Shown: piece after piece, positions 9,396 to 26,438 of the stretch
How positions within the stretch are numbered: position 1 is the stretch's first letter
How the letters are laid out: each line of letters starts with the position of its first letter
IMG/VR virus record: IMGVR_UViG_3300018421_000009
DNA: 64,000 bases
Strand: one strand, 5' to 3'
DNA from: an uncultured virus (IMG/VR IMGVR_UViG_3300018421_000009)
Taxonomy: Duplodnaviria; Heunggongvirae; Uroviricota; Caudoviricetes
The notes under the pieces: model-generated
Told to the model about the DNA's origin: nothing
Seen by the model: the letters and a program-made list of their open reading frames with translations, nothing else
Databases searched by the model: none
Position numbers and translations under genes: made by a program

Positions 9396-11162
9396 ATGAG
9401 TTGGAAAAGATATTTTACAAATGCCCCTGTCGATAATAATGGCATGGGGAATATGAGTCCATTTAGTGGACAAGGCGGAACCGAACCAGGTCCTGCACGA
9501 TCAAATTATTCATCGTACCTACCGGACGTTTATGTAGGTTCACCTAACCGTGTTGAACGTTACGGCCAATACAATGTAATGGATAACGATTCAGAAGTTA
9601 ATGCGGCACTAGATATTTTAGCAGAGTTTTGCTCACAGAAAAATCCAACTAACGAAACTAATTTTCATTTACACTTTAATAAACAAGCAACTAATTCAGA
9701 AGTAAAAATTCTAAGTCAATACTTGTTACAGTGGAGTAAACTGCAAAAGTTTGACACTAAAATGTTCCGCATTTTACGTAATGTATTCAAATACGGTGAT
9801 GCATTCTTTGTAAGAGATCCAGAAACTAAAAAATGGTATCATGTTGATCCTGCAAAAGTTTCACGTATTATTGTAAACGAATCCGACGGTAAAAAGCCTG
9901 AACAATATATTATTAAAGATATTAACTTTAACTTTAGAGATCAAGTAATTACTGATCCATATGTTACATCAGGAAATGTAACAGGCGGCGGTGCTTCACA
10001 ACCAAGTACAGGTTATCAAGCAGGCGGATCACAAGGTATGGTAGGTAATGTTGGTTCGTCACAGTCCGGATCAAGATTTACAACAAATCAACAAGAGTAT
10101 GCAATTGACGCAGAACACGTTATACACTTGTCACTATCAGAAGGATTAGATAACAACTATCCATTTGGTAACTCACTGTTAGAATCTATTTTTAAAGTTT
10201 ACAAACAAAAAGAATTACTTGAAGATGCTATTATCATTTACCGTACACAAAGAGCACCAGAAAGACGTGTGTTCTACATTGACGTGGGTAATATGCCATC
10301 ACACTTAGCAATGCAATTTGTTGAGCGTGTTAAAACAGAAATTCATCAAAGACGTATTCCATCAGCAACTGGTGGTTCAACAAGTGTTATTGATAGTGCG
10401 TACAATCCATTATCAACAAACGAAGATTACTTCTTCCCACAAACAGCAGAAGGACGTGGATCTAAAGTTGAAACATTGCCAGGTGGTACTAACCTAGGTG
10501 AAATTGATGACTTAAAATACTTTACTAATAAACTTATTAGAGGTTTACGTATTCCTAGTTCTTATTTGCCTACAGCGGCACAAGACGAAGGACAAAGTCA
10601 GTACAATGATGGTAGAGTTGGTACAGCATATATTCAAGAACTACGTTTTAACAAATACTGTGAACGTTTACAAAATCTAGTTATTGAACAATTTAATCAA
10701 GAGTTTAAACGTTACTTGTTAGAAAAAGGTATGAACGTAGACATTAGTATGTTTGATGTTCAACTACAAGAACCAATGAACTTTGCTTCTTACAGACAAT
10801 CAGAACTTGACAATGTAAGAATTCCAACCTTTACACAAATTCAAGCAGTACCTTTCTTATCTAATAGATTTGCACTACAACGTTTCTTAGGACTAAGTGC
10901 AGAAGAAGTTGCAGAAAACGAAAGACTATGGCGTGAAGAAAATGATGAAAACTTAACTCCACTACCAACTGAAGCCGCTGGTGAGATGCGTGGCGTAGGT
11001 ATTAGTGGTGCAGGTATGGATGCTGATGTAGGTGGCGCTGAAGATGTTGATCCAAATGCTGAACCGGCTCCAGTTGATGGCGGTGCAGGTGCTCCACCAG
11101 ATACAACAACAGGTACACCATTAGGTGGTGGCGCAGGCGGCGCAACGCCTCCAGCACAATAG
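9396..11162 (+). CDS. gp20: Portal vertex protein
   Basis: LLEDAIIIYR..RAPERRVFYIDVGNMP, EDYFFP...GRGSKVETLPGG.NLGEIDD..YF: T4 gp20 motifs. Confidence 0.96.
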   Translation: MSWKRYFTNAPVDNNGMGNMSPFSGQGGTEPGPARSNYSSYLPDVYVGSPNRVERYGQYNVMDNDSEVNAALDILAEFCSQKNPTNETNFHLHFNKQATNSEVKILSQYLLQWSKLQKFDTKMFRILRNVFKYGDAFFVRDPETKKWYHVDPAKVSRIIVNESDGKKPEQYIIKDINFNFRDQVITDPYVTSGNVTGGGASQPSTGYQAGGSQGMVGNVGSSQSGSRFTTNQQEYAIDAEHVIHLSLSEGLDNNYPFGNSLLESIFKVYKQKELLEDAIIIYRTQRAPERRVFYIDVGNMPSHLAMQFVERVKTEIHQRRIPSATGGSTSVIDSAYNPLSTNEDYFFPQTAEGRGSKVETLPGGTNLGEIDDLKYFTNKLIRGLRIPSSYLPTAAQDEGQSQYNDGRVGTAYIQELRFNKYCERLQNLVIEQFNQEFKRYLLEKGMNVDISMFDVQLQEPMNFASYRQSELDNVRIPTFTQIQAVPFLSNRFALQRFLGLSAEEVAENERLWREENDENLTPLPTEAAGEMRGVGISGAGMDADVGGAEDVDPNAEPAPVDGGAGAPPDTTTGTPLGGGAGGATPPAQ

Positions 11163-12137: not shown

Positions 12138-13130
12138 ATGGCAGACCGTAATAAATTCGAGGAAATGCTCGAAAAATTAGTCAATGAAGATCGCAAAGGT
12201 GCAGAAGAACTGTTCCATGAGATTGTAGTTGAAAAATCCAGACAAATTTATGAAAATCTTTTAGAAGATGATCTAGAAGAGTTAGACGTTGCTGAAGAAA
12301 AAGACGAAGAAGTTGATGAGTCTTCAGACGACGAAGAAACTAACGAAGCAACTGACGAAGAAGTTGATGAGTCTTCAGATGATGAAGAAGTTGATGAAGC
12401 AAAAGACGAAGAAGTTGACGAATCAGATGATGAAGAAGTTGACGAATCTTCAGACGATGAAGAAGTTGCAGAAGATATTCCAGTAGAATTAACCCCTGAA
12501 GCAGGCGATGACATGGGCGGTGACCCAACAGATGACATGATGTCTGATATTGAAGGTGGTGACGAAGAAGGCGACGACGAAGGCGGCGAAGAAGAAATTG
12601 AAGACCGTGTTGTTGACTTAGAAGATGCTCTTGATGACCTTAAGGCAGAATTTGAAAAAATGATGTCAGATAAAGGCGGCGATGAAGATGAAGGCGAAGG
12701 CGACGACGCTGAAATGGACATGGGCGACGAAGAAGGTGATGAAGAAGCAGAGGAAGAGGCGATTGATCCTACTTCCGAACTTGCTGTAGACGCAGTACCA
12801 GCATATGAAGGAACTAAATCACAATCAGAAATGATGCGTGAGTACGTAAACAAAGTTTCTTCTCCTTCTAACTCAGAAGGTGCAGACAATAAAAAATCTG
12901 TAGTTGCTAATAAAAACGATATGGGCGGTACTACTGCTAATATCGCAAAAGGTGAAGATGCAAAAGAATCTGCTAAAGCAGACTCTGCAAAAGAAGATAA
13001 CGCAGGTAACGTAAACGTTCCAGGCGGCAAAGCATCTAAATCGATGACTGCAAACAGCAAAGGCCACGGCGCTGAGAAAAAAGGCGCAGGCGAAAAAGGT
13101 GTTGACAAGAAATCTGTTGTTGGCTCCTAA
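12138..13130 (+). CDS. Highly acidic prohead core protein (gp67/68-like role)
   Basis: Strong SD ggagg; Asp/Glu-rich; repeated DEEVDE; lies between portal and protease. Confidence 0.7.
   Translation: MADRNKFEEMLEKLVNEDRKGAEELFHEIVVEKSRQIYENLLEDDLEELDVAEEKDEEVDESSDDEETNEATDEEVDESSDDEEVDEAKDEEVDESDDEEVDESSDDEEVAEDIPVELTPEAGDDMGGDPTDDMMSDIEGGDEEGDDEGGEEEIEDRVVDLEDALDDLKAEFEKMMSDKGGDEDEGEGDDAEMDMGDEEGDEEAEEEAIDPTSELAVDAVPAYEGTKSQSEMMREYVNKVSSPSNSEGADNKKSVVANKNDMGGTTANIAKGEDAKESAKADSAKEDNAGNVNVPGGKASKSMTANSKGHGAEKKGAGEKGVDKKSVVGS
12303..12470 (+). repeat. Imperfect coding tandem repeats (gacgaagaagttgatga..., DEEVDES)
   Basis: About six units of D-E-E-V-D/A-E. Confidence 0.85.
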
Positions 13131-13145
13131 TTGAGGACTTGTTAA

Positions 13146-13769
13146 ATGATGACAAACCATTTACGTGAGAACTTGACATTCGACCAGGCAAAATTGGTCC
13201 TTGAGTCTACTAATGAAGGTAAAGACCTTCACTTAAAAGGCATCTGCATTCAAGGTGGCGTTCGTAACGCTAACCAACGTGTATATCCTGTAAGCGAAAT
13301 TAGTAGGGCTGTCAATACTCTCAACGATCAGATTAGCGGAGGTTATAGTGTTCTCGGCGAGGTTGATCATCCAGAAGGACTCAATATTAACCTAGACCGT
13401 GTTTCTCATATGATTACTGAGATGTGGATGGACGGTCCTAATGGTTACGGAAAACTTAAAATATTACCAACCCCTATGGGACAACTAGTTAAAACAATGC
13501 TTGAAAGCGGAGTAAAATTAGGAGTTTCATCAAGGGGCTCTGGTAACGTTAATGAGGAGAACAATGTGAGTGATTTCGAAATAATCACTGTAGACATTGT
13601 TGCCCAACCATCTGCTCCAGGTGCGTATCCAACACCGATTTACGAGCATTTGATGAATACCACAGGTGGGTATAAGGCATTTAATTTGGCTCGCGAAGTT
13701 CATGAAGATAAAAAGGCACAAAGATTTTTAAAAGAATCCTTAGTAAACATCATCAAAGGATTAAAATAA
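13146..13769 (+). CDS. gp21: Prohead protease
   Basis: NANQRVYP, LGEVDHP, ILPTPMG, GVSSRGSG, DIVAQPSAPGAY. Confidence 0.95.
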   Translation: MMTNHLRENLTFDQAKLVLESTNEGKDLHLKGICIQGGVRNANQRVYPVSEISRAVNTLNDQISGGYSVLGEVDHPEGLNINLDRVSHMITEMWMDGPNGYGKLKILPTPMGQLVKTMLESGVKLGVSSRGSGNVNEENNVSDFEIITVDIVAQPSAPGAYPTPIYEHLMNTTGGYKAFNLAREVHEDKKAQRFLKESLVNIIKGLK

Positions 13770-13779
13770 GGAGAACAAG

Positions 13780-14886
13780 ATGTTGGACGCACTGAAATCA
13801 CTCTTTGAAAACAATGCTATTTCAGAAGAAGTTAAAGCCGACATCGAAGAGGCATGGAATAATAGGGTTACAGAAAACCGTATGCAGGTAACAGCAGAAC
13901 TTCGCGAAGAGTTTGCACAAAAGTATGAGCACGACAAGGCCGTTATGGTTGAAGCCGTGGAAAAAATGCTTGATGACAAATTAAGTGAAGAAATTAAAGA
14001 ATTTGCTGATGACCGTTCCAAACTTGCTGAAGCGAGAGCAAAGTACCATGTAGCAATGCGTGAAAACGCAGATCTACTTAAAAACTTTGTTGTTTCTCAA
14101 CTTGGCAAAGAAGTCTCTGAACTACACGAAGACCAAAAAGCAATGTCAGAAAAATTTGGCAAACTTGAGGAATTTGTTGTAGAGGCTTTAGCAAAGGAAA
14201 TCGCAGAGTTCCACGAAGATAAAAAAGATCTTGCAGAAACAAAAGTTCGACTAATCCGTGAAGCAAAGAAACATCTTGACACTGTCAAAGAATCCTTCAT
14301 CAAGAAGGGTGCTAAAGTTGTTGAATCTACAGTTGCTAAAACGCTTTCTAAAGAGATTACTGCTCTTAAGGAAGACATTGATGCGGCTCGTAAGAACGAC
14401 TTTGGACGTAAACTATTTGAAACATTTGCAGAAGAGTATTCACATTCATATTTGAATGAGAAATCAGAAACTGCTAAATTGATGAAAGTAGTTGAGTTGA
14501 AAGATAAGCAATTAGCAGAAGCAAAAGCAACTGCTGAAGAAAAAACACGCTTAGTTGAATCTAAAGAAGCAGAAATTGCTTCTGAAAAAGATTCTGCAAA
14601 AAGAAAAGAATTAATTTCTGAGTTAACTGCACCTTTAAGCAGAGAACAGAAAGAGATTATGATAGACTTACTAGAGTCTGTACAAACTGCTAATATCCAA
14701 AAACAGTTTGACAAGTATCTACCATCAGTAATTGAAGGTAACACTCTGGCTAAGAAGAAGGCAACACTTACCGAGGCAATTGAAGTAACAGGCAATAAAG
14801 AAACTAACGTTAGTAACGGCGCAAGTAATTCTGCAACCATCGACAATGTTGTAGACATTAGACGACTTGCAGGATTAAACATATAA
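13780..14886 (+). CDS. gp22: Prohead scaffold (core) protein
   Basis: Long E/K-rich coiled coil between protease and capsid genes. Confidence 0.85.
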   Translation: MLDALKSLFENNAISEEVKADIEEAWNNRVTENRMQVTAELREEFAQKYEHDKAVMVEAVEKMLDDKLSEEIKEFADDRSKLAEARAKYHVAMRENADLLKNFVVSQLGKEVSELHEDQKAMSEKFGKLEEFVVEALAKEIAEFHEDKKDLAETKVRLIREAKKHLDTVKESFIKKGAKVVESTVAKTLSKEITALKEDIDAARKNDFGRKLFETFAEEYSHSYLNEKSETAKLMKVVELKDKQLAEAKATAEEKTRLVESKEAEIASEKDSAKRKELISELTAPLSREQKEIMIDLLESVQTANIQKQFDKYLPSVIEGNTLAKKKATLTEAIEVTGNKETNVSNGASNSATIDNVVDIRRLAGLNI

Positions 14887-14896
14887 GGAGAAAAAA

Positions 14897-16060
14897 ATGT
14901 CAGAACTATTAGAAAGTCGCTGGCAGGAAACCAAGAGCGCATTACTTGAAGGCCTTCAAGGCAACAAGAAGTCTGTTATGTCCGCTACTCTAGAAAATAC
15001 TAAAAAGTATTTGGCAGAGACAGCAACAGCAGGCGCTACTTCAGCAGGTAATGTTGCAACTCTTAACAGAGTTATCCTACCAGTAATTAGACGTGTTATG
15101 CCAACCGTCATTGCAAACGAAATCGTTGGTGTACAACCAATGACTGGCCCAGTTGGCCAAATTCACACTCTACGTGTACGTTATGCTGATACAGCAGACG
15201 ACGCAACAGCGGGTGAAGAGGCTTTATCACCATTCAAGTTAGCCCTAGGCTACTCAGGTGACGCGGCTGGCTCAGACGCAGGTAAAGCAGATGCTACTGC
15301 TTCTTTAGAAGGTACAGCAGGTAAGCGTTTGAACATCCAAATCTTGAAACAAACAGTTGAAGCGAAAACTCGTAAATTGAGTGCTCGTTGGACTTTTGAA
15401 TCAGCACAGGATGCTCAAGCACAGCAAGGCATCGACGTTGAAGCGGAAATTATGGCCGCTTTAGCACAAGAAATTACCGCAGAAATTGATCAAGAGGTGT
15501 TAGCATCTCTTAACTCTTTAGCACCATCTGAAGAGACTTACAATCAAGCGGCAGTTTCAGGTACGGCTACATTCGTAGGCGATGAACACGCGGCATTGGC
15601 TGTTCTTATTAACAGAGCGGCTAACAAGATCGCACAGCGTACAAGACGTGGCGCAGGTAACTGGGCTGTTGTGTCTCCACAGGCACTAACAATCCTACAA
15701 TCTGCTACTACTTCAGCGTTCGCTCGTACAACAGAAGGTACATTTGAAGCACCAACTAACACTAAGTTAGCAGGTACTTTAAACGGTGCTATGAAAATCT
15801 ACGTAAACGCTTATTCAGCAGATGATACTGCTGTTCTAGTTGGTTACAAAGGTTCATCTGAAGCAGATGCGGCGGCATTCTACTGCCCATACATTCCGTT
15901 AATGTCTTCAGGCGTTGTACTAGATCCATCTACTTTTGAACCAGTAGTAAGTTTCATGACAAGATATGGTTATGTTGAGTTAAACAACACAGCATCATCA
16001 CTTGGTAATGCGGCAGACTACTTGGCTAAAGTAGCGATCTCAAACGTAACATTCTCTTAA
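14897..16060 (+). CDS. gp23: Major capsid protein
   Basis: ILPVIRRVMP..IA.EIVGVQPMTGP.GQI, AKTRKLSARWT.E.AQD, EITAEID, FYCPYIPL, F.P...FMTRYG. Confidence 0.97.
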   Translation: MSELLESRWQETKSALLEGLQGNKKSVMSATLENTKKYLAETATAGATSAGNVATLNRVILPVIRRVMPTVIANEIVGVQPMTGPVGQIHTLRVRYADTADDATAGEEALSPFKLALGYSGDAAGSDAGKADATASLEGTAGKRLNIQILKQTVEAKTRKLSARWTFESAQDAQAQQGIDVEAEIMAALAQEITAEIDQEVLASLNSLAPSEETYNQAAVSGTATFVGDEHAALAVLINRAANKIAQRTRRGAGNWAVVSPQALTILQSATTSAFARTTEGTFEAPTNTKLAGTLNGAMKIYVNAYSADDTAVLVGYKGSSEADAAAFYCPYIPLMSSGVVLDPSTFEPVVSFMTRYGYVELNNTASSLGNAADYLAKVAISNVTFS

Positions 16061-16111: not shown

Positions 16112-16142
16112 ACGGTTGAATTCCGTGAACAAGGAAGCACAT

Positions 16143-16514
16143 ATGTTGGAGCATAAACATTTGATTATCAGAGCAGAAGTTGAAAAGCCAATAATTAATC
16201 GAAACAAGGCTCGCAAGTTTTTAAGAAGTCTAATTAAAAAAATCAACATGAAAGAACTATACGGTCCAGTTGCAAGTTATTGTAAAATGGCAGGCAACAG
16301 AGGGATCACAGCATTTGCAGTTATTGAAACAAGTCATCTAGCAATGCACATTTGGGATGAAGACAATCCTTCTTTAATCCAACTTGACGTTTATAGTTGT
16401 AGCAGTTTTGATCCAAGAACAGTATTTGATCACTTAGAAATAATGCAACCAGTTAAAGTAGATTATAAATTTTTGGACAGAGAAACGCAATTAATTCCTA
16501 TTTTGGACAAATAA
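16143..16514 (+). CDS. speD: S-adenosylmethionine decarboxylase proenzyme (pyruvoyl-dependent)
   Basis: HKHLII, GITAFAVIETSHLAMHIW.E, LDVYSC; likely start MLEHKH after aagga. Confidence 0.85.
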   Translation: MLEHKHLIIRAEVEKPIINRNKARKFLRSLIKKINMKELYGPVASYCKMAGNRGITAFAVIETSHLAMHIWDEDNPSLIQLDVYSCSSFDPRTVFDHLEIMQPVKVDYKFLDRETQLIPILDK

Positions 16515-16518
16515 ACGG

Positions 16519-16547
16519 TTGCTTTTTTCACAAACATTTGTTATATT
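16519..16547 (+). promoter_or_regulatory. Sigma70-type promoter: TTGCTT - 17 bp - (TG)TATATT
   Basis: -35 at 16519-16524, extended -10 at 16542-16547; no ORF downstream before the terminator. Confidence 0.7.
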
Positions 16548-16553
16548 AGTATT

Positions 16554-16772
16554 ATAAGCATTAGGAGATTAATTAACTCTTAATATTAGTGCAAGGAAGA
16601 GGCCTTTACCAGAAGGGTCTAACTTGACTAGCCAGGGGTGGTACCCAGGGTTTGTACTAGAAATAGGCAGGCTCACATCGCAGTCACTAGCGGGGTTAGG
16701 TTGTGCGGTTTAGGAATGGTATTCCGGTCCGTGCTTGGAGGTGTAACCAAGTCCTCCCTAATTTGCTTTACT
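16554..16772 (+). ncRNA. Free-standing structured ncRNA of unknown family
   Basis: GC-rich ORF-free unit between promoter and terminator, with multiple G-U-containing stems, a GAAA tetraloop and potential pseudoknots. Confidence 0.75.
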
Positions 16773-16810
16773 AAAAAGACTTGGCGGGGAGACTTTCCAA
16801 GTCTTTTTTT
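16773..16810 (+). terminator. Rho-independent terminator (possibly bidirectional)
   Basis: aaaaagacttgg ... ccaagtcttttttt. Confidence 0.9.
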
Positions 16811-16826
16811 ATGACTAAATATTAGT

Positions 16827-17246
16827 ATGAGGGACGAATACACATCGGCCTTTTACGACATTGTCCGAGAGGCACAATCAACTACTGGTTTTGATTTACC
16901 ATTAGAAATCGAAGCCTACGTAGTAATGCTTCTTGCAGACAAGATAGACAAACCAAATTTTCTTCCACAAACTACATTTGCACAAGAGTTTTTAAAACTT
17001 AAACGTCCATACAATTACACAGCAAAAGAACTAGGTGATAGTTGCTTGTTTGTTACTGGTGTTTTTCCTGAATATGGAATAAGTGTGCGTTACTATTCAG
17101 ATATAGGAAAAAGTTCGTATACGCTTGTACAAGAAGGTCTAAATGCAGAACTATTTGGACTTTTAGCAACACGCTTTGATTTCATTAGAGATTTCATAAA
17201 TTTAACAGTACGTAGAAATAAATCACCAATTACAGCATTGAGATAA
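16827..17246 (+). CDS. Hypothetical helical protein
   Basis: 139 aa; AYVVMLLA ... LGDSCLFVTGVFP ... YY...GKSSY; TAAATA 5 nt before the ATG. Confidence 0.75.
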   Translation: MRDEYTSAFYDIVREAQSTTGFDLPLEIEAYVVMLLADKIDKPNFLPQTTFAQEFLKLKRPYNYTAKELGDSCLFVTGVFPEYGISVRYYSDIGKSSYTLVQEGLNAELFGLLATRFDFIRDFINLTVRRNKSPITALR

Positions 17247-17254
17247 ATACTTGT

Positions 17255-17349
17255 GTCAGATAGTGTGCCGCATAATGTGGCGGACTTATGCTGTTACCCA
17301 CAGCGTACCGGATAGAACCCGGATAGGACTACTTTATAGGAGAAAACAA
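17255..17349 (+). promoter_or_regulatory. Structured 5' leader of a late structural gene
   Basis: Three consecutive hairpins (17266-17282, 17287-17307, 17308-17322) between TAAATA (17244) and SD ataggag. Confidence 0.55.
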
Positions 17350-17802
17350 ATGGGAAGACCACTAAACAAAAGATACTTCGGCGAACCAACTGCTGGAGGC
17401 AATGAAATTAAAGTTAACTTCAACGACGGTTCATCTGTTGTAGAAGGTCACATTGTAAAACAAAAAGGTTCAAAGCGTTTTGTTGTTGCGCCTTTAGGTG
17501 CTTCGGACACTGAATATACTTGCGTTCTTACTACTGGTAAATTACCAGCGGCATTAGCGGCAGGCGAAATGGCTATTTCAGTTAAAGGTGACGACGGCGA
17601 AACTTACGGTGTAAGCAAAATTGCAGGACATAAAGTTACTGTAGTTGCTCCAAGTGCAACTGGTTCAAACGCATTAGACGGAACATCAATTGCTTGGAAT
17701 TATAGTACTTCGGCTGTTGACGGTGCAGTACAAGTTGAAGAGGCTGGTGAAACAGACGACGCGGCTTCAGTTACTGATGACGATTTCACAGACGACGCAT
17801 AA
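17350..17802 (+). CDS. Virion structural protein (start MGRPLNK at 17350)
   Basis: Strong SD; own late promoter and terminator; IVKQKGSKRF motif. Confidence 0.7.
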   Translation: MGRPLNKRYFGEPTAGGNEIKVNFNDGSSVVEGHIVKQKGSKRFVVAPLGASDTEYTCVLTTGKLPAALAAGEMAISVKGDDGETYGVSKIAGHKVTVVAPSATGSNALDGTSIAWNYSTSAVDGAVQVEEAGETDDAASVTDDDFTDDA

Positions 17803-19736: not shown

Positions 19737-22589
19737 ATGTCTCTAGGTAAAATATCAGGTCCACTACTCAGTAGAAACCTATTAAGAGAAACAGATCTAG
19801 CATTTGAAACAGACTTGCTTTATATCGGACATACCGATGGCAAGATTGGTATCAATACGGTTACTCGCCCTCGTGATTTTACAGTTAACGGTACACTAAA
19901 AGCACGTAGTACTGGATATGACTTAGAAATTACAAATCAACTAAACATCGGCGACTTAACATTTGGTCCAAATGGCATAAGCACAATATCAGGAAACATT
20001 TATCTTAATCATGCCGGCGGCAGTGTAACAACAGGCGGCTTACAAACTCCTACTATTGAAATTAATGACAACTATGTTGGAACTCATGTAACAAACGGTG
20101 ATATTAATTTTGTTCCAAACGGAGTAGGTACTAATGAAATTATTACAGCAGGTCAAACAGTTAATGTCAATGGCAGTGTTCATGCTACTGGTAACATTAC
20201 ATTTGATGGCAGTATCCTTATTGGTGGAGATGGTGATGAAGACAATGTAGCATTTCGAGGCGACATTGAAGGTAATCTAACACCTGATGTAACAAACACT
20301 TGGGATATTGGTACAGACGCACAACGATTTAATTATAACACTACAAATTTATTAGTTAATAATGTTATTAGTGCAGAAAACGTAACTATTGATGGAATTG
20401 AAGTTACACTTTCACAAGGAAATATATGGTATGTTGCTGTAAATGGCGATAATACAAGACGTGGCACAAGTCCACAAGGTCCTTTAGGCAGTATTAAGTA
20501 TGCGTTAAGTCAAGCACAAGCAGGAGATACTGTTTTTATTAATACAGGAGATTACGAAGAAGAATTTCCATTAGAAGTTCCAGCAGGTGTTACTGTAAAA
20601 GGACAAGATTTGCGTAATGTAATTATTCGTCCTACAACAGATAATCAAAGCGAAGACGCATTTTTACTAAATGGCGAAAGCACAGTTGAAAATGTAACTG
20701 TAAAAGATTTTTATTATGACAATGTAAATGATAAAGGTTATGGTTTTCGTTTTGCAGGTGACATGAGAGTAAGTACACGTTCACCTTATATTAGAAACGT
20801 AACTGTAATTACACACGGAAGTGCTACAAGTGCAAGTGACCCAAGAGGTTTTAATAGTGGAGATGCAGGCAAAGGTGCATTGTTTGACGGAAGTGTTTGC
20901 GACCATGAAACAAAAGAAGCAAGTGCATTATTCCATAGTGTAACTTTTATTACACCTGGAGTAGATTGTATTACTCTTATCAACGGTGTTAGAGTTGAAT
21001 GGTTAAATTCTTTTACATATTTTGCTAATCGTTCTTATTATTTGCAAAACGGAACAGGTAGATGGCGTTCAGATAGTACACTTGCTAAAGGAGCAGAACT
21101 ACGATCAATAGGTTCAGCAAGTATTTACGGTAACTATGGTATTGTTGCAGATGGTGATGAGTGTTTAGCATATCTTATTTCGCATAACTTTGCGTATATT
21201 GGTTCTGGCAATGATGTTAGTAATGATAATACAACAACAATTCAAAGTCAAGAAACAGTAGAACTAAACAACGGTAAAGTTTACTTTAACTCACAAGACC
21301 AAATGGGTAACTTTAGAGTTGGTAATAACTTTTATGTAAATCTAAAAGACGGAACTACTAGTATTGATGCTGATACCGTTGACGCATCAGGTATTTCTAG
21401 TTTACGTGTAACAACTCCTCAAGGAGATACATCATATATTGACGGTGCTAATGTCGAAACTGGTGCTATTAGAATAATTTCACCTAATAAAATTAAATCA
21501 GTATCTGGACCTATATACTTCGAATCGCCTTCAAACGTACATAATATTAATACTGATGCAAGATTTGAAAAACTAACACTTACAGGAAATCTTACACTAG
21601 GAGGTTCGCTTGTAACTATTGGTAATGAAGCATCAGATACAGTAGATTTTAATACTCCGTTTGATCAAAATGTTTATCCTTCAGCAGATAACACATACGA
21701 TTTAGGAACTGAAAACAAACGTTGGAAAAATGCTTACCTAAATGAAATAGAAGTAGACAGTTTTACATTTAATGAAAACTATATTCGTGTTAATAACACA
21801 AATGAAAATCTAGAATTACGTGCTAACGCTTCTGGATATGTTAAATTTGACGATTTAAAATCTAAAACAAATATAATATCTACAGATACAGCAGACATTA
21901 CTTTTACTCCAGGTGAAAATCTAAAAGTTACATCAACTACAAGACTACAATTACCTGTAGGAACTTCGCAACAGCGTTCAAACAATGTTGCTGATATTCG
22001 TTATAATACAGATTATCAAAATTTTGAAGGTTATAATGGTGGAACTGTAGTAATGCCTGGATTATATGACTCAGACAGAGACACATATCTTGACCTATCC
22101 AACAACGAATTTACATTTTACACAGGCGGAAATGCAAACAGTGTAATAAACGGAACAGCATTAACAACTAATCGTTTTGATTCGCAGAATTCTTTAAGTA
22201 TTGACGGAAATACTCTTACAAGTGCTACACCGAATGCAGATATTCAATTTGTTTCTAACGGAACAGGTAGTATTGGTCAGGAAGATCTAGACTTTAAAAA
22301 CAGTACAATTACTAATACTTTAAATACTCCGTTTACTTTCCAATTAGCAGACATATATTCTTATGTTAAATTTGATCAACCTAGTGGTTTAGTAGTTCCT
22401 TGGGGTACTTCTGCACAACGTCCTACAAATCCAGAGCCAGGACATACACGTTTTAATACGGACCCTAGTAAATTGTTCCTAGAATCGTGGAACGGAACAC
22501 AGTGGGTTTTAGCGGCAGGTGGCGGTGAATCTGTTACTGAAGAGTACGCTGAAGATGTGAACTTCCTTTGGAACATTATCCTATCCTAA
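19737..22589 (+). CDS. Large tail fibre/baseplate protein with beta-helix-like domain
   Basis: WYVA.NG.....G.....P...I..AL..A..GDT..I..G.Y.E..PL.VP.GV motif; paralog of 22728. Confidence 0.75.
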   Translation: MSLGKISGPLLSRNLLRETDLAFETDLLYIGHTDGKIGINTVTRPRDFTVNGTLKARSTGYDLEITNQLNIGDLTFGPNGISTISGNIYLNHAGGSVTTGGLQTPTIEINDNYVGTHVTNGDINFVPNGVGTNEIITAGQTVNVNGSVHATGNITFDGSILIGGDGDEDNVAFRGDIEGNLTPDVTNTWDIGTDAQRFNYNTTNLLVNNVISAENVTIDGIEVTLSQGNIWYVAVNGDNTRRGTSPQGPLGSIKYALSQAQAGDTVFINTGDYEEEFPLEVPAGVTVKGQDLRNVIIRPTTDNQSEDAFLLNGESTVENVTVKDFYYDNVNDKGYGFRFAGDMRVSTRSPYIRNVTVITHGSATSASDPRGFNSGDAGKGALFDGSVCDHETKEASALFHSVTFITPGVDCITLINGVRVEWLNSFTYFANRSYYLQNGTGRWRSDSTLAKGAELRSIGSASIYGNYGIVADGDECLAYLISHNFAYIGSGNDVSNDNTTTIQSQETVELNNGKVYFNSQDQMGNFRVGNNFYVNLKDGTTSIDADTVDASGISSLRVTTPQGDTSYIDGANVETGAIRIISPNKIKSVSGPIYFESPSNVHNINTDARFEKLTLTGNLTLGGSLVTIGNEASDTVDFNTPFDQNVYPSADNTYDLGTENKRWKNAYLNEIEVDSFTFNENYIRVNNTNENLELRANASGYVKFDDLKSKTNIISTDTADITFTPGENLKVTSTTRLQLPVGTSQQRSNNVADIRYNTDYQNFEGYNGGTVVMPGLYDSDRDTYLDLSNNEFTFYTGGNANSVINGTALTTNRFDSQNSLSIDGNTLTSATPNADIQFVSNGTGSIGQEDLDFKNSTITNTLNTPFTFQLADIYSYVKFDQPSGLVVPWGTSAQRPTNPEPGHTRFNTDPSKLFLESWNGTQWVLAAGGGESVTEEYAEDVNFLWNIILS

Positions 22590-22727: not shown

Positions 22728-25700
22728 GTGGCAGTTGGTCGTATATCTGGTCCGCTTTTGAAGGCAAACCTACTTCGCCAAGGAGTGGATCTCGCTTTTG
22801 AAACGGATTTATTGTACTTAGATGTTAATAATAGCCGAATAGGAGTTAACACTAACGCACCTGCGACCGCTCTCGATATAAACGGAACAGCAAGAATTCA
22901 AACATTAGATATTTTAGACACTACATTACCAATTGGTAATATTACTATTGACGGTGCTACAAATACAATATCTACTACACAGCCTGTATTCACTATCACA
23001 ACACCAAATCACGTTGTTTATCAAGACAAATTGATTATTGACGATATTGAAATTGATAATGCTACTATTAGAGCAACAGGCACAAACCAGAATTTAGAGT
23101 TTAGACCAAACGGAACTGGTACTGTAAACTTCTTTGGTGACACAAATATTACAGGTAATTTACACGCAACCGGCAATATTACAGCAGATGGCGATATTAC
23201 AATTGGTGATAGCGACACAGATACTATCGTAATTAACGCTGATATTAACTCAGATCTTATTCCAGATGTTACTAATACCTACACAATTGGTACTCCTACT
23301 AAAATTTGGTCACACGGTTACTTTAATGATCTAACAGCAACTAGTATTACAACTGCTGGATTAACAATTGGTGACTTAGATTTAACACTTACTCCGGGTA
23401 ATGTTTATTACGTTGCTCAAAATGGAGACGATGCACATTCAGGCGAACACCCACAAGATCCGTTTGCTAGTTTGTCATATGCACTTAGCCAAGCAACTGC
23501 TGGAGATACTATTCACATTTACCCAGGGACATACGAAGAAACGTTTCCTTTAACAGTTCCAACAGGTGTAACTGTTGTTGGTGAAAGTGTTAGAGGTGTA
23601 AAAATTGTCCCTACAGCAGGAACAAATAATAATGATGCGTTTTTATTAAACGGAGAAACAAGTGTAGTTAATTTAACTGTTGCAGATTTCTTCTACGACA
23701 GTATCAATAACACAGGATGGGCATTTAAATTTGCAAGTAACTTTGAAGTTACTACACGTTCACCATATATTAAAAATGTTAGTGTAATTACAGCAGGTAG
23801 TGTTACAAGTGCAAGTGATCCGAGAGGTTTTGATCAAGGTGACGCAGGCCGCGGTGCATTTATTGATGGTGAAATAGCAACTGCTAACTCACGTGAAGCA
23901 AGTATGTTGTTCCACAGTGTAACATTTATTGTTCCAGGTGGTGTTGGTGTACTAGCAAAGAATGGTGCAAGGGTTGAGTGGTTAAACTCATTTGTATATT
24001 TTGCAGATAAAGCAATTATTGGTGAGAATGGTACTAACGGATTAAAAGGTACAGGACGTACAAAAACTAAATTAAGTGGACTAGTTGGAACACCAACAGC
24101 AGGTGAAACATTTGTCTATACAGACAGTCAAGGCAATGCTGTAAATGCAACTGTTAATGAAGTTGATGGAAATTACATTTACTTGAATAATAATGTTTCT
24201 GGACTAGAAACAAAATATGAACGTGGCGGAAAAACTGTTGTTGCTGTTGACAATGCACAAATTGATACTGCAATTAAAAAGTTTGGTACAGGTTCGCTAT
24301 TATTAGACGGTACTGGAGATTATATTTCTGTTGCTAACGATCCAGACTTTGGTTTTGGCACAGGTAATTTTACTATTGAAGGATGGTTTTATGCTAATGA
24401 TGTTACAGGTACAAAATCATTAGTAGACCTAAGAGCAGGCACAGCAGTTGATTCGGGATTATATATAAAATCAGATAGTGCTACTGTTAGTGTTACACAC
24501 AACGGCACACAAATACTAAGTGGCGGCGTACTTTCAACAGCAACATGGACTCACATTGCTGTAACAAGATCCGGTACAACAATTAATTTATATGTTAACG
24601 GTACTAGAGTAGACTCAGATAATACTTTTAGTGACGACTTAGGTTCTGCTAAACCGTTATTGATTGGTGCGGCATATGACGGATCGAGTGGATGGGACGG
24701 ACAAGTTGATGATTTTAGAATTTCAACTGTTGCAAGATACACACTTGGTAGTTATACTCCACCATTAAATGAAGTTTCAAATGATGTTGACACACAAATT
24801 CTTTTAAGATTTAACGGAACAGACGGCTCGACAACTTTTGAAGATGATGTTATTGTTGAACAAGCAATTGGATTTGGCGGCGGTGCCTATGCAACAGGAA
24901 TTGAACTAGCAGACTTTTCAGACTTTGGTTGTGAAGTTCGTTCAATTGGTAGTGCGTGTGTATATGGCAACTATGGTGCGTATGGTGATGGTAACGGTGT
25001 TATCATGTATCTTATTTCACAGAACTTTGCGTACATTGGCAACGGTAAAGAAACAGATAATGATCCAACAACAGTATTACAAAGTCAAGAAGTTACAAAA
25101 CTTAATAATGCAAACGTATATTACAGTTCAGTTGACCATAAAGGTGATTTTAGAGTTGGTGACATTTTCCATGTTAACCAAGCAGACGGTACAGTAAACT
25201 TTACTAATGCAAACTTTAACATTGATACATTACAAAGTGTAAGATTTAGTACAGGTTCATCAACTACAATTATTAATGGCGATCAAATTCAAACAGGCAA
25301 TATTAGATTAAGCGGTAATACTATTGAAAGTTTAAGCGGAGATTTAAACTTTGATGCACAAGCAGGAATGGTATATTTTAATGACGATGTTAATATTGCA
25401 GGTAACTTAGATGTTGTTGGTGACGTAACCATTGGCGGTAATATTACTATTGGTGATGAAGTTACAGACACTATTCAAATTGTTGCAGGTATTGCAAGTA
25501 ATCTTGTTCCAAGCCAAGACGGTGTTTACACACTAGGTACTGTTTCAAACGAATGGCGTAAATTATACGCAAGAGAAATTCAAGTTGATGATATTAACAT
25601 CAACGATAATGTGATTCAAACTACAAATACTAACCAAGACTTGGAGTTACGTGCTAGTGGTACAGGTAGTATTGTAATAGATGATTTAAGTTTTAAAACT

Positions 25701-26438
25701 AACATTGTTAGTTCTACTAATGATATTATATTATCTCCAGGTAGTGAAAGTGTAGACATTGACGCAACAGGAAGTTTACGCTTACCAAGAGGTACAACAC
25801 TAGAACGTCCAGGCACACCTGAACTAGGTATGCTACGTTATAACACAGATACTGATGTATTTGAAGGATATGACGGAAATTGGATTACACTAAACGGTAT
25901 TAGAGACGTTGACCAAGATACATATATCCTTGCAGAGTCGACACCGGGTGCAGACGACGATACACTAACGTTTTTTGCCGCAGGACAGCAGGTTGCAGAC
26001 GTTAATAGCACTAGATTTAATGTAAATAAGTTAGCAGTAGACGATATTGAAATTGAAGGTAATACTGTTAGAACAGTAACCCTTAATACAGATTTAAACC
26101 TATTAGCAAATGGTACTGGTAAAGTAATCATTGAGAACTTTGGCTTTAATGCTAATTCGATAACTAATACTGTAGCAGGTGCAGTTACAACACTTGCCCA
26201 AACAGGTACTGGATACTTTAAAATTGAAGGTACTGGTGGATTTGTTATTCCAGTTGGTGATCTAACTAATAGACATCCGACACCAGAAACTGGAATGATG
26301 CGTTTTAACACAGCAGACGATCGTGTTGAAATTTATGATCCATCAGGACAATGGGTATCAGTAGCAGGTAGTTCGGGTGCTGTGTCGGCACAAGATGCTG
26401 AAGAAATTGCAATTAAGATGGCGGTTACGATAGGATAA
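22728..26438 (+). CDS. Large tail fibre protein with LamG/concanavalin A-like domain
   Basis: GRISGPLL..NLLR..DLAFETDLLY N-terminus; FTIEGWFY...WTHIAVTRSG...LYVNG...G.VDDFRIS LamG pattern. Confidence 0.8.
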   Translation: MAVGRISGPLLKANLLRQGVDLAFETDLLYLDVNNSRIGVNTNAPATALDINGTARIQTLDILDTTLPIGNITIDGATNTISTTQPVFTITTPNHVVYQDKLIIDDIEIDNATIRATGTNQNLEFRPNGTGTVNFFGDTNITGNLHATGNITADGDITIGDSDTDTIVINADINSDLIPDVTNTYTIGTPTKIWSHGYFNDLTATSITTAGLTIGDLDLTLTPGNVYYVAQNGDDAHSGEHPQDPFASLSYALSQATAGDTIHIYPGTYEETFPLTVPTGVTVVGESVRGVKIVPTAGTNNNDAFLLNGETSVVNLTVADFFYDSINNTGWAFKFASNFEVTTRSPYIKNVSVITAGSVTSASDPRGFDQGDAGRGAFIDGEIATANSREASMLFHSVTFIVPGGVGVLAKNGARVEWLNSFVYFADKAIIGENGTNGLKGTGRTKTKLSGLVGTPTAGETFVYTDSQGNAVNATVNEVDGNYIYLNNNVSGLETKYERGGKTVVAVDNAQIDTAIKKFGTGSLLLDGTGDYISVANDPDFGFGTGNFTIEGWFYANDVTGTKSLVDLRAGTAVDSGLYIKSDSATVSVTHNGTQILSGGVLSTATWTHIAVTRSGTTINLYVNGTRVDSDNTFSDDLGSAKPLLIGAAYDGSSGWDGQVDDFRISTVARYTLGSYTPPLNEVSNDVDTQILLRFNGTDGSTTFEDDVIVEQAIGFGGGAYATGIELADFSDFGCEVRSIGSACVYGNYGAYGDGNGVIMYLISQNFAYIGNGKETDNDPTTVLQSQEVTKLNNANVYYSSVDHKGDFRVGDIFHVNQADGTVNFTNANFNIDTLQSVRFSTGSSTTIINGDQIQTGNIRLSGNTIESLSGDLNFDAQAGMVYFNDDVNIAGNLDVVGDVTIGGNITIGDEVTDTIQIVAGIASNLVPSQDGVYTLGTVSNEWRKLYAREIQVDDININDNVIQTTNTNQDLELRASGTGSIVIDDLSFKTNIVSSTNDIILSPGSESVDIDATGSLRLPRGTTLERPGTPELGMLRYNTDTDVFEGYDGNWITLNGIRDVDQDTYILAESTPGADDDTLTFFAAGQQVADVNSTRFNVNKLAVDDIEIEGNTVRTVTLNTDLNLLANGTGKVIIENFGFNANSITNTVAGAVTTLAQTGTGYFKIEGTGGFVIPVGDLTNRHPTPETGMMRFNTADDRVEIYDPSGQWVSVAGSSGAVSAQDAEEIAIKMAVTIG

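Follow-up and report, generated by a model that had tools for sequence, protein, structure and literature searches.

Why does a phage carry, inside the block of genes for its virion structure, a spacer with a promoter and a terminator of its own? The spacer lies at positions 16519 to 16810 on the + strand of a 64,000-nucleotide (nt) stretch of DNA from an uncultured virus of the Caudoviricetes (IMG/VR record IMGVR_UViG_3300018421_000009), and this whole stretch is called the window here. A sequence-only reading had proposed an orphan RNA gene, ribozyme-like or protein-sponging, with complementary loops. Our work confirmed that the roughly 210-nt structured RNA in 16519-16810 is a real gene with its own start and stop signals, that is, a separately promoted and terminated noncoding RNA gene on the + strand inside the structural (late) gene block. 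It is not an orphan: the RNA matches manA (RF01745), a family classed as cis-regulatory and as a riboswitch candidate by Rfam and in passages of Weinberg et al. (2010, Genome Biol 11:R31, PMC2864571). On balance we favor the view that the locus is a self-contained gene of a divergent manA RNA, which would be a free, early and self-associating RNA.

Membership in the manA family

The covariance model of manA aligned to the window RNA over its full length (model positions 1 to 192 of 192) with 51.2 bits, at an E-value of 3.1e-12 in a local scan and of 3.7e-10 when the whole window was compared with all 4227 Rfam families, and this is the single manA copy in the 64 kb. Every consensus helix of the model forms standard pairs in the window RNA: the 5' hairpin, the closing helix, P3, the three-hairpin junction and the two 3' hairpins (Table 1).

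Two points weigh against this assignment and its generality. The score does not reach the gathering score of the family, 55.2 bits; a default gathering scan of the window reports solely the freshwater-2 RNA further downstream, and manA emerges with an E-value threshold. In addition, our homologues are loci containing a 14-mer taken from the RNA, and clades without it lie outside the sample. The scan with this 14-mer over IMG/VR gave at least 119 loci, at least 59 of them with a homologue and the remainder being chance 14-mers; all counts of homologues, promoters, terminators and neighbors reported here are among the matches listed for it.

The relatives nevertheless lead to copies above the cut-off. 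A blastn search of 50,697 phage records gave a single relative, a spacer without annotation in Pelagibacter phage Mosig EXVC030M (73.6% identity). This copy scores 64.0 bits against RF01745, and the nearest record (G001) holds a manA copy with the identical score of 51.2 bits. When 20 homologous loci were scanned with Rfam, manA was listed at an E-value of 1e-3 or below in 17, reached at least 55.2 bits in 5 and was unlisted in 3. Because 17 of the 20 list manA and only 5 reach the cut-off, the window RNA belongs to a divergent manA clade that straddles the Rfam threshold. The whole clade is therefore mostly missed by standard annotation; a survey of pelagimyophages made with another tool reports no riboswitches in the passages cited here (PMC7029224). 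Mosig is a cultured phage with an above-cut-off copy and offers a test system.

We are highly confident that the window RNA is a member of the manA family and, judged by these matches, it is a new, divergent, sub-threshold member of an already catalogued family. Could it still be an orphan that stands apart from the catalogued families and founds a class of its own, be it a self-cleaving ribozyme or a sponge for proteins? The default gathering scan does leave the RNA unreported, and catalytic or protein-binding activity of manA RNAs is conceivable. However, the full-length match and the chain of homologues refute the orphan part of this proposal, and no ribozyme, 6S, SRP, RNase P, tmRNA, tRNA or phi29 prohead RNA (pRNA) was among the 6 matches at an E-value of 10 or below in 16400-16950, which leaves a new class very improbable. 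The sequence-only reading had itself named a hit to a known Rfam family as what would remove the novelty. The manA match is such a hit and, because the RNA belongs to this known family, the claim of a new class of RNA falls, together with the label "orphan"; the label "ribozyme-like" draws no support from the matches. That reading was right to see no kinship to tRNA, tmRNA, RNase P, SRP or 6S, and ARAGORN found no tRNA or tmRNA in the window either.

How far does the family extend? RF01745 was not found in the jumbo-phage relatives Vibrio phage 2.275.O or PA5oct, nor in four of the five cyanophage genomes scanned; the sole positive is Synechococcus phage ACG-2014f_Syn7803C8, with 90.1 bits at NC_047713.1 128130-128340. 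A longer pattern, run on one genome from each of 185,579 prokaryote species, hit two contigs of the same metagenome-assembled genome (MAG), and since both are phage-like, the scan gives no clue to the host.

Fold and contacts between loops

Does comparison support a conserved fold? The window sequence and 53 distinct homologues from viral contigs were aligned with MAFFT (54 sequences), and the Rfam-derived fold of the window was projected on the alignment after we had lengthened some of its helices and included two loop-loop helices. Standard pairs fill 88.1% of the 3760 cells, compared with 38 to 50% when partners are slid, and 50 of the 70 pairs are changed on both sides. True partners have a covariation score of 0.467 and slid partners one of 0.09 to 0.13, and none of 500 shuffles was as high as the former. 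RNAalifold, blind to the Rfam structure, recovered P2, P3a, P3, P4, P5, P7, P8 and P9 with 39 pairs, 26 of them compensatory. At P2 the window has a compensatory U-A where A-U prevails among its relatives. Fourteen columns of the search pattern are invariant by construction, and covariation therefore neither supports nor refutes P3a (CAAG/CUUG). In the L7, L8 and P6 columns the MAFFT alignment under-counts pairs (helices 7, 11 and 12).

Most of the fold proposed earlier is confirmed by this comparison, namely, the helices aggccttt/aagggtct (P3), the GGG/CCC hairpin (P5), the GAAA-capped hairpin (P6), gtgcgg/ccgtgc with ggaa/uucc (P8) and ggagg/cctcc (P9). Three helices of that proposal, gcaag/tttgc, tgact/agtca and cttgg/ccaag, are unsupported, with a covariation score of 0.066 that equals the shuffled mean and is reached by 209 of 500 shuffles; in their place the comparison yields P2, P3a and P4. 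The helix gcaag/tttgc is 86.9% paired, yet the search pattern fixes its 5' strand, and the helix is incompatible with P2, which covaries. The assignment to the + strand stands, with the covariance-model match, the orientation of promoter and terminator and the G-U pairs in agreement.

The same data bear on whether there is a functional RNA at all. A chance intergenic fold would be in keeping with the modest folding energy of the single sequence (z of -2.16 for the whole RNA on the + strand and -1.45 on the - strand), and a small protein gene with the frame of 58 amino acids (aa) at 16638-16814. However, that frame is open in merely 13 of 53 homologues, the promoter is conserved, and the compensatory pairs in 54 sequences already refute the idea, to which we attach practically no probability. 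A frame free of stops across the RNA exists in only 4 of 54 homologues, whichever frame is taken, and the short open reading frames (ORFs) that overlap the locus lack conservation, in line with the earlier statement that it holds no ORF.

Which parts of the RNA touch each other, or touch other copies? According to the main text of a preprint (Ren et al. 2026, bioRxiv 10.64898/2026.07.01.735769), cryo-electron microscopy (cryo-EM) structures of manA RNAs comprise decamers, octamers and a 60-mer cage, and the assemblies contain pentamers held by the intermolecular kissing loops L5-L7' and L8-L9'. The same text describes an alternative set of interfaces, made of L5-L7', L3-L8' and a contact of the GNRA loop L6. 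The mapping of the preprint's loop numbers onto the Rfam hairpins is our own inference; it fits in that L6 is then the GNRA loop and L5/L7 are the GGUGGU/ACCA pair.

The loops singled out earlier are where they had been placed, UACCA at 16607-16611 and UGGUA at 16639-16643 and 16717-16721. In the family, the L5/L7 partners are UGGU with ACCG (or ACCA, or ACUA as in the window), UUGU/ACAG, UUGC/GCAG, UUAU/AUAG and UAGU/ACUA, and the L8/L9 partners are UGGU/ACCA, AUGGAAU/AUUCCAU, CAGA/UCUG and CGAGA/UCUCG. L7 of the window, AGUCACUA, lacks ACCA and retains its complementarity to L5 as UGGU/ACUA.

We collapsed the data to distinct loop combinations, permuted the partners 5000 times and compared run length and duplex energy. 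For L5-L7, the mean longest run was 4.35 for cognate and 3.55 for permuted partners, with 0 of 5000 permutations reaching the cognate by run and 2 by duplex energy, figures that are indications and not probabilities because the permutation preserves loop composition but not phylogeny. The same limit applies to L8-L9 (4.13 cognate and 3.64 permuted; 0 of 5000 by run and 0 by duplex energy) and to L3-L8 (9 of 5000 by duplex energy and 104 by run). For the remaining ten loop pairings tested, at least 1095 of 5000 permutations were as good by either measure.

Hence, the L5-L7 and L8-L9 contacts of the clade are complementary and covary, they correspond to the oligomer interfaces in the main text of the preprint, and this covariation is evolutionary evidence for loop contacts that cryo-EM saw in vitro; the strings "covari" and "in vivo" do not occur in that main text. 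The proposal that complementary loops are functional pairing partners has thus gained both covariation and, in the preprint's main text, kissing loops in solved relatives. As to its specific form, kissing between UACCA and UGGUA, L3 and L8 are complementary over 5 bp and covary weakly. In the window, the UGGUA of L8 forms 4 bp with L9 (ACCA) or 5 bp with the UACCA of L3. Since L8 can pair with either, the window RNA may use either set of interfaces.

Some considerations weigh against contacts between molecules in the cell. Covariation is blind to whether a loop contact is intra- or intermolecular, and kissing within one molecule is sterically conceivable because P5 and P7 share a junction and P8 and P9 are adjacent. 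Moreover, the oligomers are in vitro results from a preprint. We consider it plausible, if somewhat short of probable, that self-assembly via kissing loops would be the functional form of the RNA.

Free-standing RNA or leader of the next gene

Is the RNA made on its own? The promoter TTGCTT-17-TATATT, claimed earlier as sigma70-type, is the sole match in the window, where 0.04 would be expected by chance; a generic promoter scan listed the overlapping TTCACA-17-TATTAT instead. From the usual spacing, transcription would start near 16554. The pattern TTGnnn-16/17-TAnnnT occurs in 50 of 54 distinct loci, its -10 box ending 19 to 22 nt before a fixed reference point of the RNA, and 41 of those 50 promoters have TTGACA or TTGACT. 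The other 4 loci have TTGAC(A/T) and a -10 box of TATATT or TATTAT type at a slightly different distance. Because 50 of 54 loci share a promoter at a fixed distance, the weak-looking TTGCTT of the window is the local version of a conserved promoter.

The terminator is as strong as claimed, with an energy of -17 kcal/mol and a z of -4.67, and none of 200 shuffles folded as well. A hairpin with a T-run follows the RNA within 110 nt in 26 of 57 distinct loci. The stems lie 11 to 27 nt beyond the CCUA that closes P2, are unrelated in sequence and, in the relatives, are not complementary to the RNA. In the minimum-energy fold of the whole transcript of the window the terminator coexists with the RNA hairpins.

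A candidate antiterminator switch was tried and rejected. In the window, GACUUGG of the terminator stem (16778-16784) complements CCAAGUC in L9 (16747-16753); since the terminator stems of the relatives are unrelated and not complementary to L9, we discarded it as a general mechanism. The loop of the window's terminator (16785-16796) and those of L043, L048, L055 and L071 share GGGAGAC, a motif that could pair in part with CUCCC in the 3' strand of P9; terminator loops in other relatives are of the UUCG type.

The manA sequence is present in RNA libraries. At least half of the sampled words were found in 13 of the 24 listed runs, all labeled salt marsh metagenome, and six RNA runs hold 13 to 25% of the sampled words. 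Four RNA runs were examined as assembled contigs. One metatranscriptome run has a 180-nt contig identical to 16588-16767 at a depth of 19, and three runs have contigs of the manA RNA of a relative at word depths of 322 to 506, the loose ends matching locus L048; contigs over neighboring coding regions have depths of 3 to 13. These depths are suggestive. Against their use as proof of a free transcript, the contigs could contain DNA, the depths come partly from relatives, and transcript ends are not represented. In the four RNA runs we saw no contig joining the RNA to the ORF at 16827, with 16496-16583 lacking cover; since contigs cannot show ends, no conclusion follows from this.

The serious rival is that the RNA is a cis-acting leader or riboswitch, which would sense a metabolite or a condition and use the terminator at 16773-16810 as its expression platform, so that read-through of early transcription into ORF 16827-17246 and beyond would be controlled. 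It agrees with the classification of manA as a cis-regulatory riboswitch candidate by Rfam and in the cited passages of Weinberg et al. (PMC2864571), and several findings of ours favor it over a free-standing RNA. The next gene is co-oriented with the RNA in 31 of 32 loci. No terminator was detected in 31 of 57 loci; because of these, an early transcript may run into the next gene, and the RNA would there be a 5' leader, e.g., of gp32. The genes after the RNA begin with the same motif in three loci (L004, L014 and L015), and that of L014, when scanned, is a cytidylyltransferase/mannose-6-phosphate isomerase, the classical and name-giving context of the family, which favors a cis-regulatory link.

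What, then, makes us regard the leader as unlikely? There is no conserved alternative pairing between the RNA and the terminators, whose stems vary, and the GACUUGG/CCAAGUC complementarity was not found in relatives; terminator and RNA hairpins can form side by side. The downstream genes are functionally unrelated: of 13 proteins scanned, 3 are gp32, 6 have no family, and the others are the cytidylyltransferase/mannose-6-phosphate isomerase, a rubrerythrin, a peroxiredoxin and a cold-shock protein. Between the RNA and the next gene, 46 of 57 loci have the motif NATAAATA or CTAAATA, which we take to resemble a T4-type late promoter. Because this motif lies 3' of the RNA, late transcripts of the next gene would lack the RNA. 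Furthermore, in the cyanophage ACG-2014f a mere 1 nt separates the manA copy from tRNA-Arg(tct) on one side and from tRNA-Asn(gtt) on the other (L130 1426-1784, equal to NC_047713.1 128055-128413), an arrangement in which tRNA processing would free the RNA. Full-text literature searches found no ligand reported in 16 years.

In place of the competing platform in a 5' untranslated region (UTR) that characterizes a riboswitch, the window RNA thus has its own terminator, no conserved alternative pairing and, across its relatives, diverse downstream genes. This gene layout argues against the label "5' UTR riboswitch" for manA. The conserved promoter, the frequent terminator, the unrelated downstream genes and the cyanophage copy between tRNAs suggest a free RNA, and we consider free-standing expression of the window manA RNA likely.

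One set of loci, group B (L008, L009, L052, L078 and others), has no terminators; the RNA is directly followed by TATAAATA, an A/U-rich leader and the gene of the single-stranded-DNA-binding protein gp32. Gene 32 of T4 is autoregulated via a structured leader. By analogy, a link of the group B manA RNA to gp32 autoregulation is conceivable.

How might a free manA RNA work? We hypothesize that, early in infection, the sigma70 RNA polymerase of the host initiates near 16554 and terminates near 16810, which would release a free transcript of about 255 nt. In the fold of this RNA, the P1 hairpin would be followed by the closing helix P2, the P3 hairpin, a junction at P4 that carries P5, P6 and P7, and the P8 and P9 hairpins. 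Its loops would make the contacts L5 (UGGU) with L7 (ACUA) and L8 (UGGU) with L9 (ACCA) or, alternatively, L3 (UACCA) with L8. It would act in trans as a self-assembling RNA particle; a riboswitch for the next gene appears less likely. We consider the trans-acting particle the most likely form because the contacts in solved manA RNAs, as described in the preprint's main text, are intermolecular and build pentamer-based closed oligomers. The timing of expression, the transcript ends, the intermolecular contacts of this RNA and its role in infection are what we infer here.

More tentatively, manA RNAs as a whole may be phage-made self-assembling RNA particles rather than riboswitches, produced as abundant free early transcripts, with a closed oligomer or cage as the functional form in the infected cell. 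The reason for proposing a closed form is that both kissing interfaces seen in vitro would have been kept by selection in more than 50 phage lineages. If true, the cage could be, for example, a scaffold, or a sink for a host factor or a small molecule, and the phenomenon would extend from cyanophages to pelagiphages and relatives of jumbo phages.

Genomic surroundings and comparison with known systems

TABLE 1 Features of the manA RNA gene and its neighbors in the window
Feature	Position	Strand	Basis or remark
T4-type portal	9396-11162
Prohead protease	13146-13769
Scaffold-like protein	13780-14886
gp23-type capsid protein	14897-16060
AdoMet-decarboxylase-like gene	16116-16514	+	Pfam PF02675, E-value 5.8e-13
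-35 box TTGCTT	16519-16524	+	sigma70-type promoter
-10 box TATATT	16542-16547	+	17-nt spacer after -35 box
manA-family RNA (RF01745)	16561-16767	+	covariance-model match and covariation on 54 sequences
P1 hairpin	16560-16584 (16560-67/16577-84)	+	7 of 8 pairs change on both sides; 85% of cells paired
P2 closing helix	16585-16589/16758-16762	+	covariation, RNAalifold
P3a	16592-95/16623-26	+	comparison, RNAalifold
P3 hairpin, loop L3 UACCAGA 16607-16613	16601-16619	+	99% of cells paired; 4 of 6 pairs change on both sides
P4, enclosing P5, P6 and P7	16628-33/16694-99	+	6 of 6 pairs change on both sides; 97.8% of cells paired
P5 hairpin, loop L5 GUGGUA 16638-16643	16635-16646	+	covariation; L5 covaries with L7
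P6 hairpin, GAAA tetraloop 16660-16663	16648-16674	+	Rfam alignment, covariation
P7 hairpin, loop L7 AGUCACUA 16682-16689, partner of L5	16678-16693	+	98% of stem cells paired
P8 hairpin (16703-08/16729-34, inner 16713-16/16722-25), loop L8 UGGUA 16717-16721	16703-16734	+	6 of 6 outer pairs change on both sides
P9 hairpin, 11-nt loop L9 UGUAACCAAGU 16742-16752, partner of L8	16737-16757	+	100% of stem cells paired; 3 of 5 pairs change on both sides
Intrinsic terminator	16773-16810	+	12-bp stem 16773-16784/16797-16808, 12-nt loop, seven T 16804-16810
ORF, no family	16827-17246
freshwater-2 RNA (RF02980)	17266-17352	+	78.7 bits; more structural genes follow

The window appears to come from an uncultivated phage with head genes similar to the ones found in jumbo phages. 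Its capsid protein is 66 to 70% identical to those of Vibrio phage 2.275.O, the PA5oct group and Escherichia phage SP27 and 61% identical to that of K64-1, and the order of the head genes is as in Vibrio phage 2.275.O and PA5oct, the two records inspected. Around the RNA, the order is capsid gene, AdoMet (S-adenosylmethionine)-decarboxylase-like gene, manA RNA, ORF 16827-17246 and freshwater-2 RNA. Among relatives, a recurring order on one strand is capsid gene, (glutamine riboswitch), manA and freshwater-2. In L006, L028, L041, L055 and L084 (also in L007, L032 and L043), the glutamine riboswitch RF01739, manA and freshwater-2 stand in a row after the capsid gene and form a cluster of RNA genes in the structural module.

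Two contigs of 153 kb and 335 kb (L131 and L132; PBPT01000082.1 and PBPT01000016.1), binned in a MAG named "Candidatus Neomarinimicrobiota," carry the same block of phage capsid gene, manA, freshwater-2 and structural genes and probably derive from giant phages, not from a bacterium.

Several neighbors of the RNA deserve mention. The decarboxylase-like gene, of a type that serves polyamine synthesis, is inserted between the capsid gene and a highly structured RNA, and in L118 a C-terminal peptide just upstream of the RNA resembles that of this gene, a likeness of peptides alone. The freshwater-2 RNA stands right in front of a conserved gene (MGRPLNKRYFG...) with its ATG at 17350. The ORF listed with a TTG start at 17251 is probably an overcall. 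In four runs, the summed depths of metatranscriptome contigs across 17332-17375 are 238 to 724. A literature search for freshwater-2 or RF02980 gave unrelated papers only. Further away, an extremely acidic protein of 330 aa with repeated DEEVDESSDDEE-like units is encoded between the portal and protease genes (12138-13130, + strand). The neighboring genes at 19737-22589 and 22728-26438 (+ strand) encode proteins of 950 and 1236 aa that are similar in their N-terminal and central regions and are probably paralogous tail-fiber-like proteins.

How does the window RNA compare with known systems? With manA as described in passages of Weinberg et al. (PMC2864571) it shares all model helices over a full-length alignment, as well as a setting common to cyanophages and the window clade, phages with T4-like genes in which manA co-occurs with the glutamine (glnA) RNA. 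It is like the manA consensus in its L5 of GGUGGU type (GUGGUA in the window), its GNRA loop L6 (GAAA) and its 11-nt L9 and differs in having ACUA instead of ACCA in L7 and a longer P1 loop. Unlike the copies in cyanophages, it resides in a phage with a jumbo-phage-like capsid protein; and unlike what the family annotation implies, it comes with a promoter and a terminator of its own and is not clearly part of a 5' UTR. The copy of cyanophage ACG-2014f belongs to the same family and is also arranged for a discrete RNA, which would be released by tRNA processing and, in the window, by promoter and terminator.

A principle of the same kind is known from the pRNA of phi29, a phage-encoded RNA of about 120 to 170 nt that forms a ring via an intermolecular 4-bp loop-loop pairing, which covaries between phages, and that has a known role on the packaging motor. 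The likeness to manA is one of principle, with no relationship in sequence or fold and no pRNA match at an E-value of 10 or below. The closest counterparts are the manA homo-oligomers in the preprint's main text (10.64898/2026.07.01.735769). They are made of other members of the same family and were assembled in vitro; the loops that form their interfaces are present and complementary in the window, and L5-L7 and L8-L9 covary. The same text names ROOL, GOLLD and OLE, natural RNAs, some of them phage-associated, which form RNA-only multimers and which unlike manA are several hundred nt long and belong to unrelated families.

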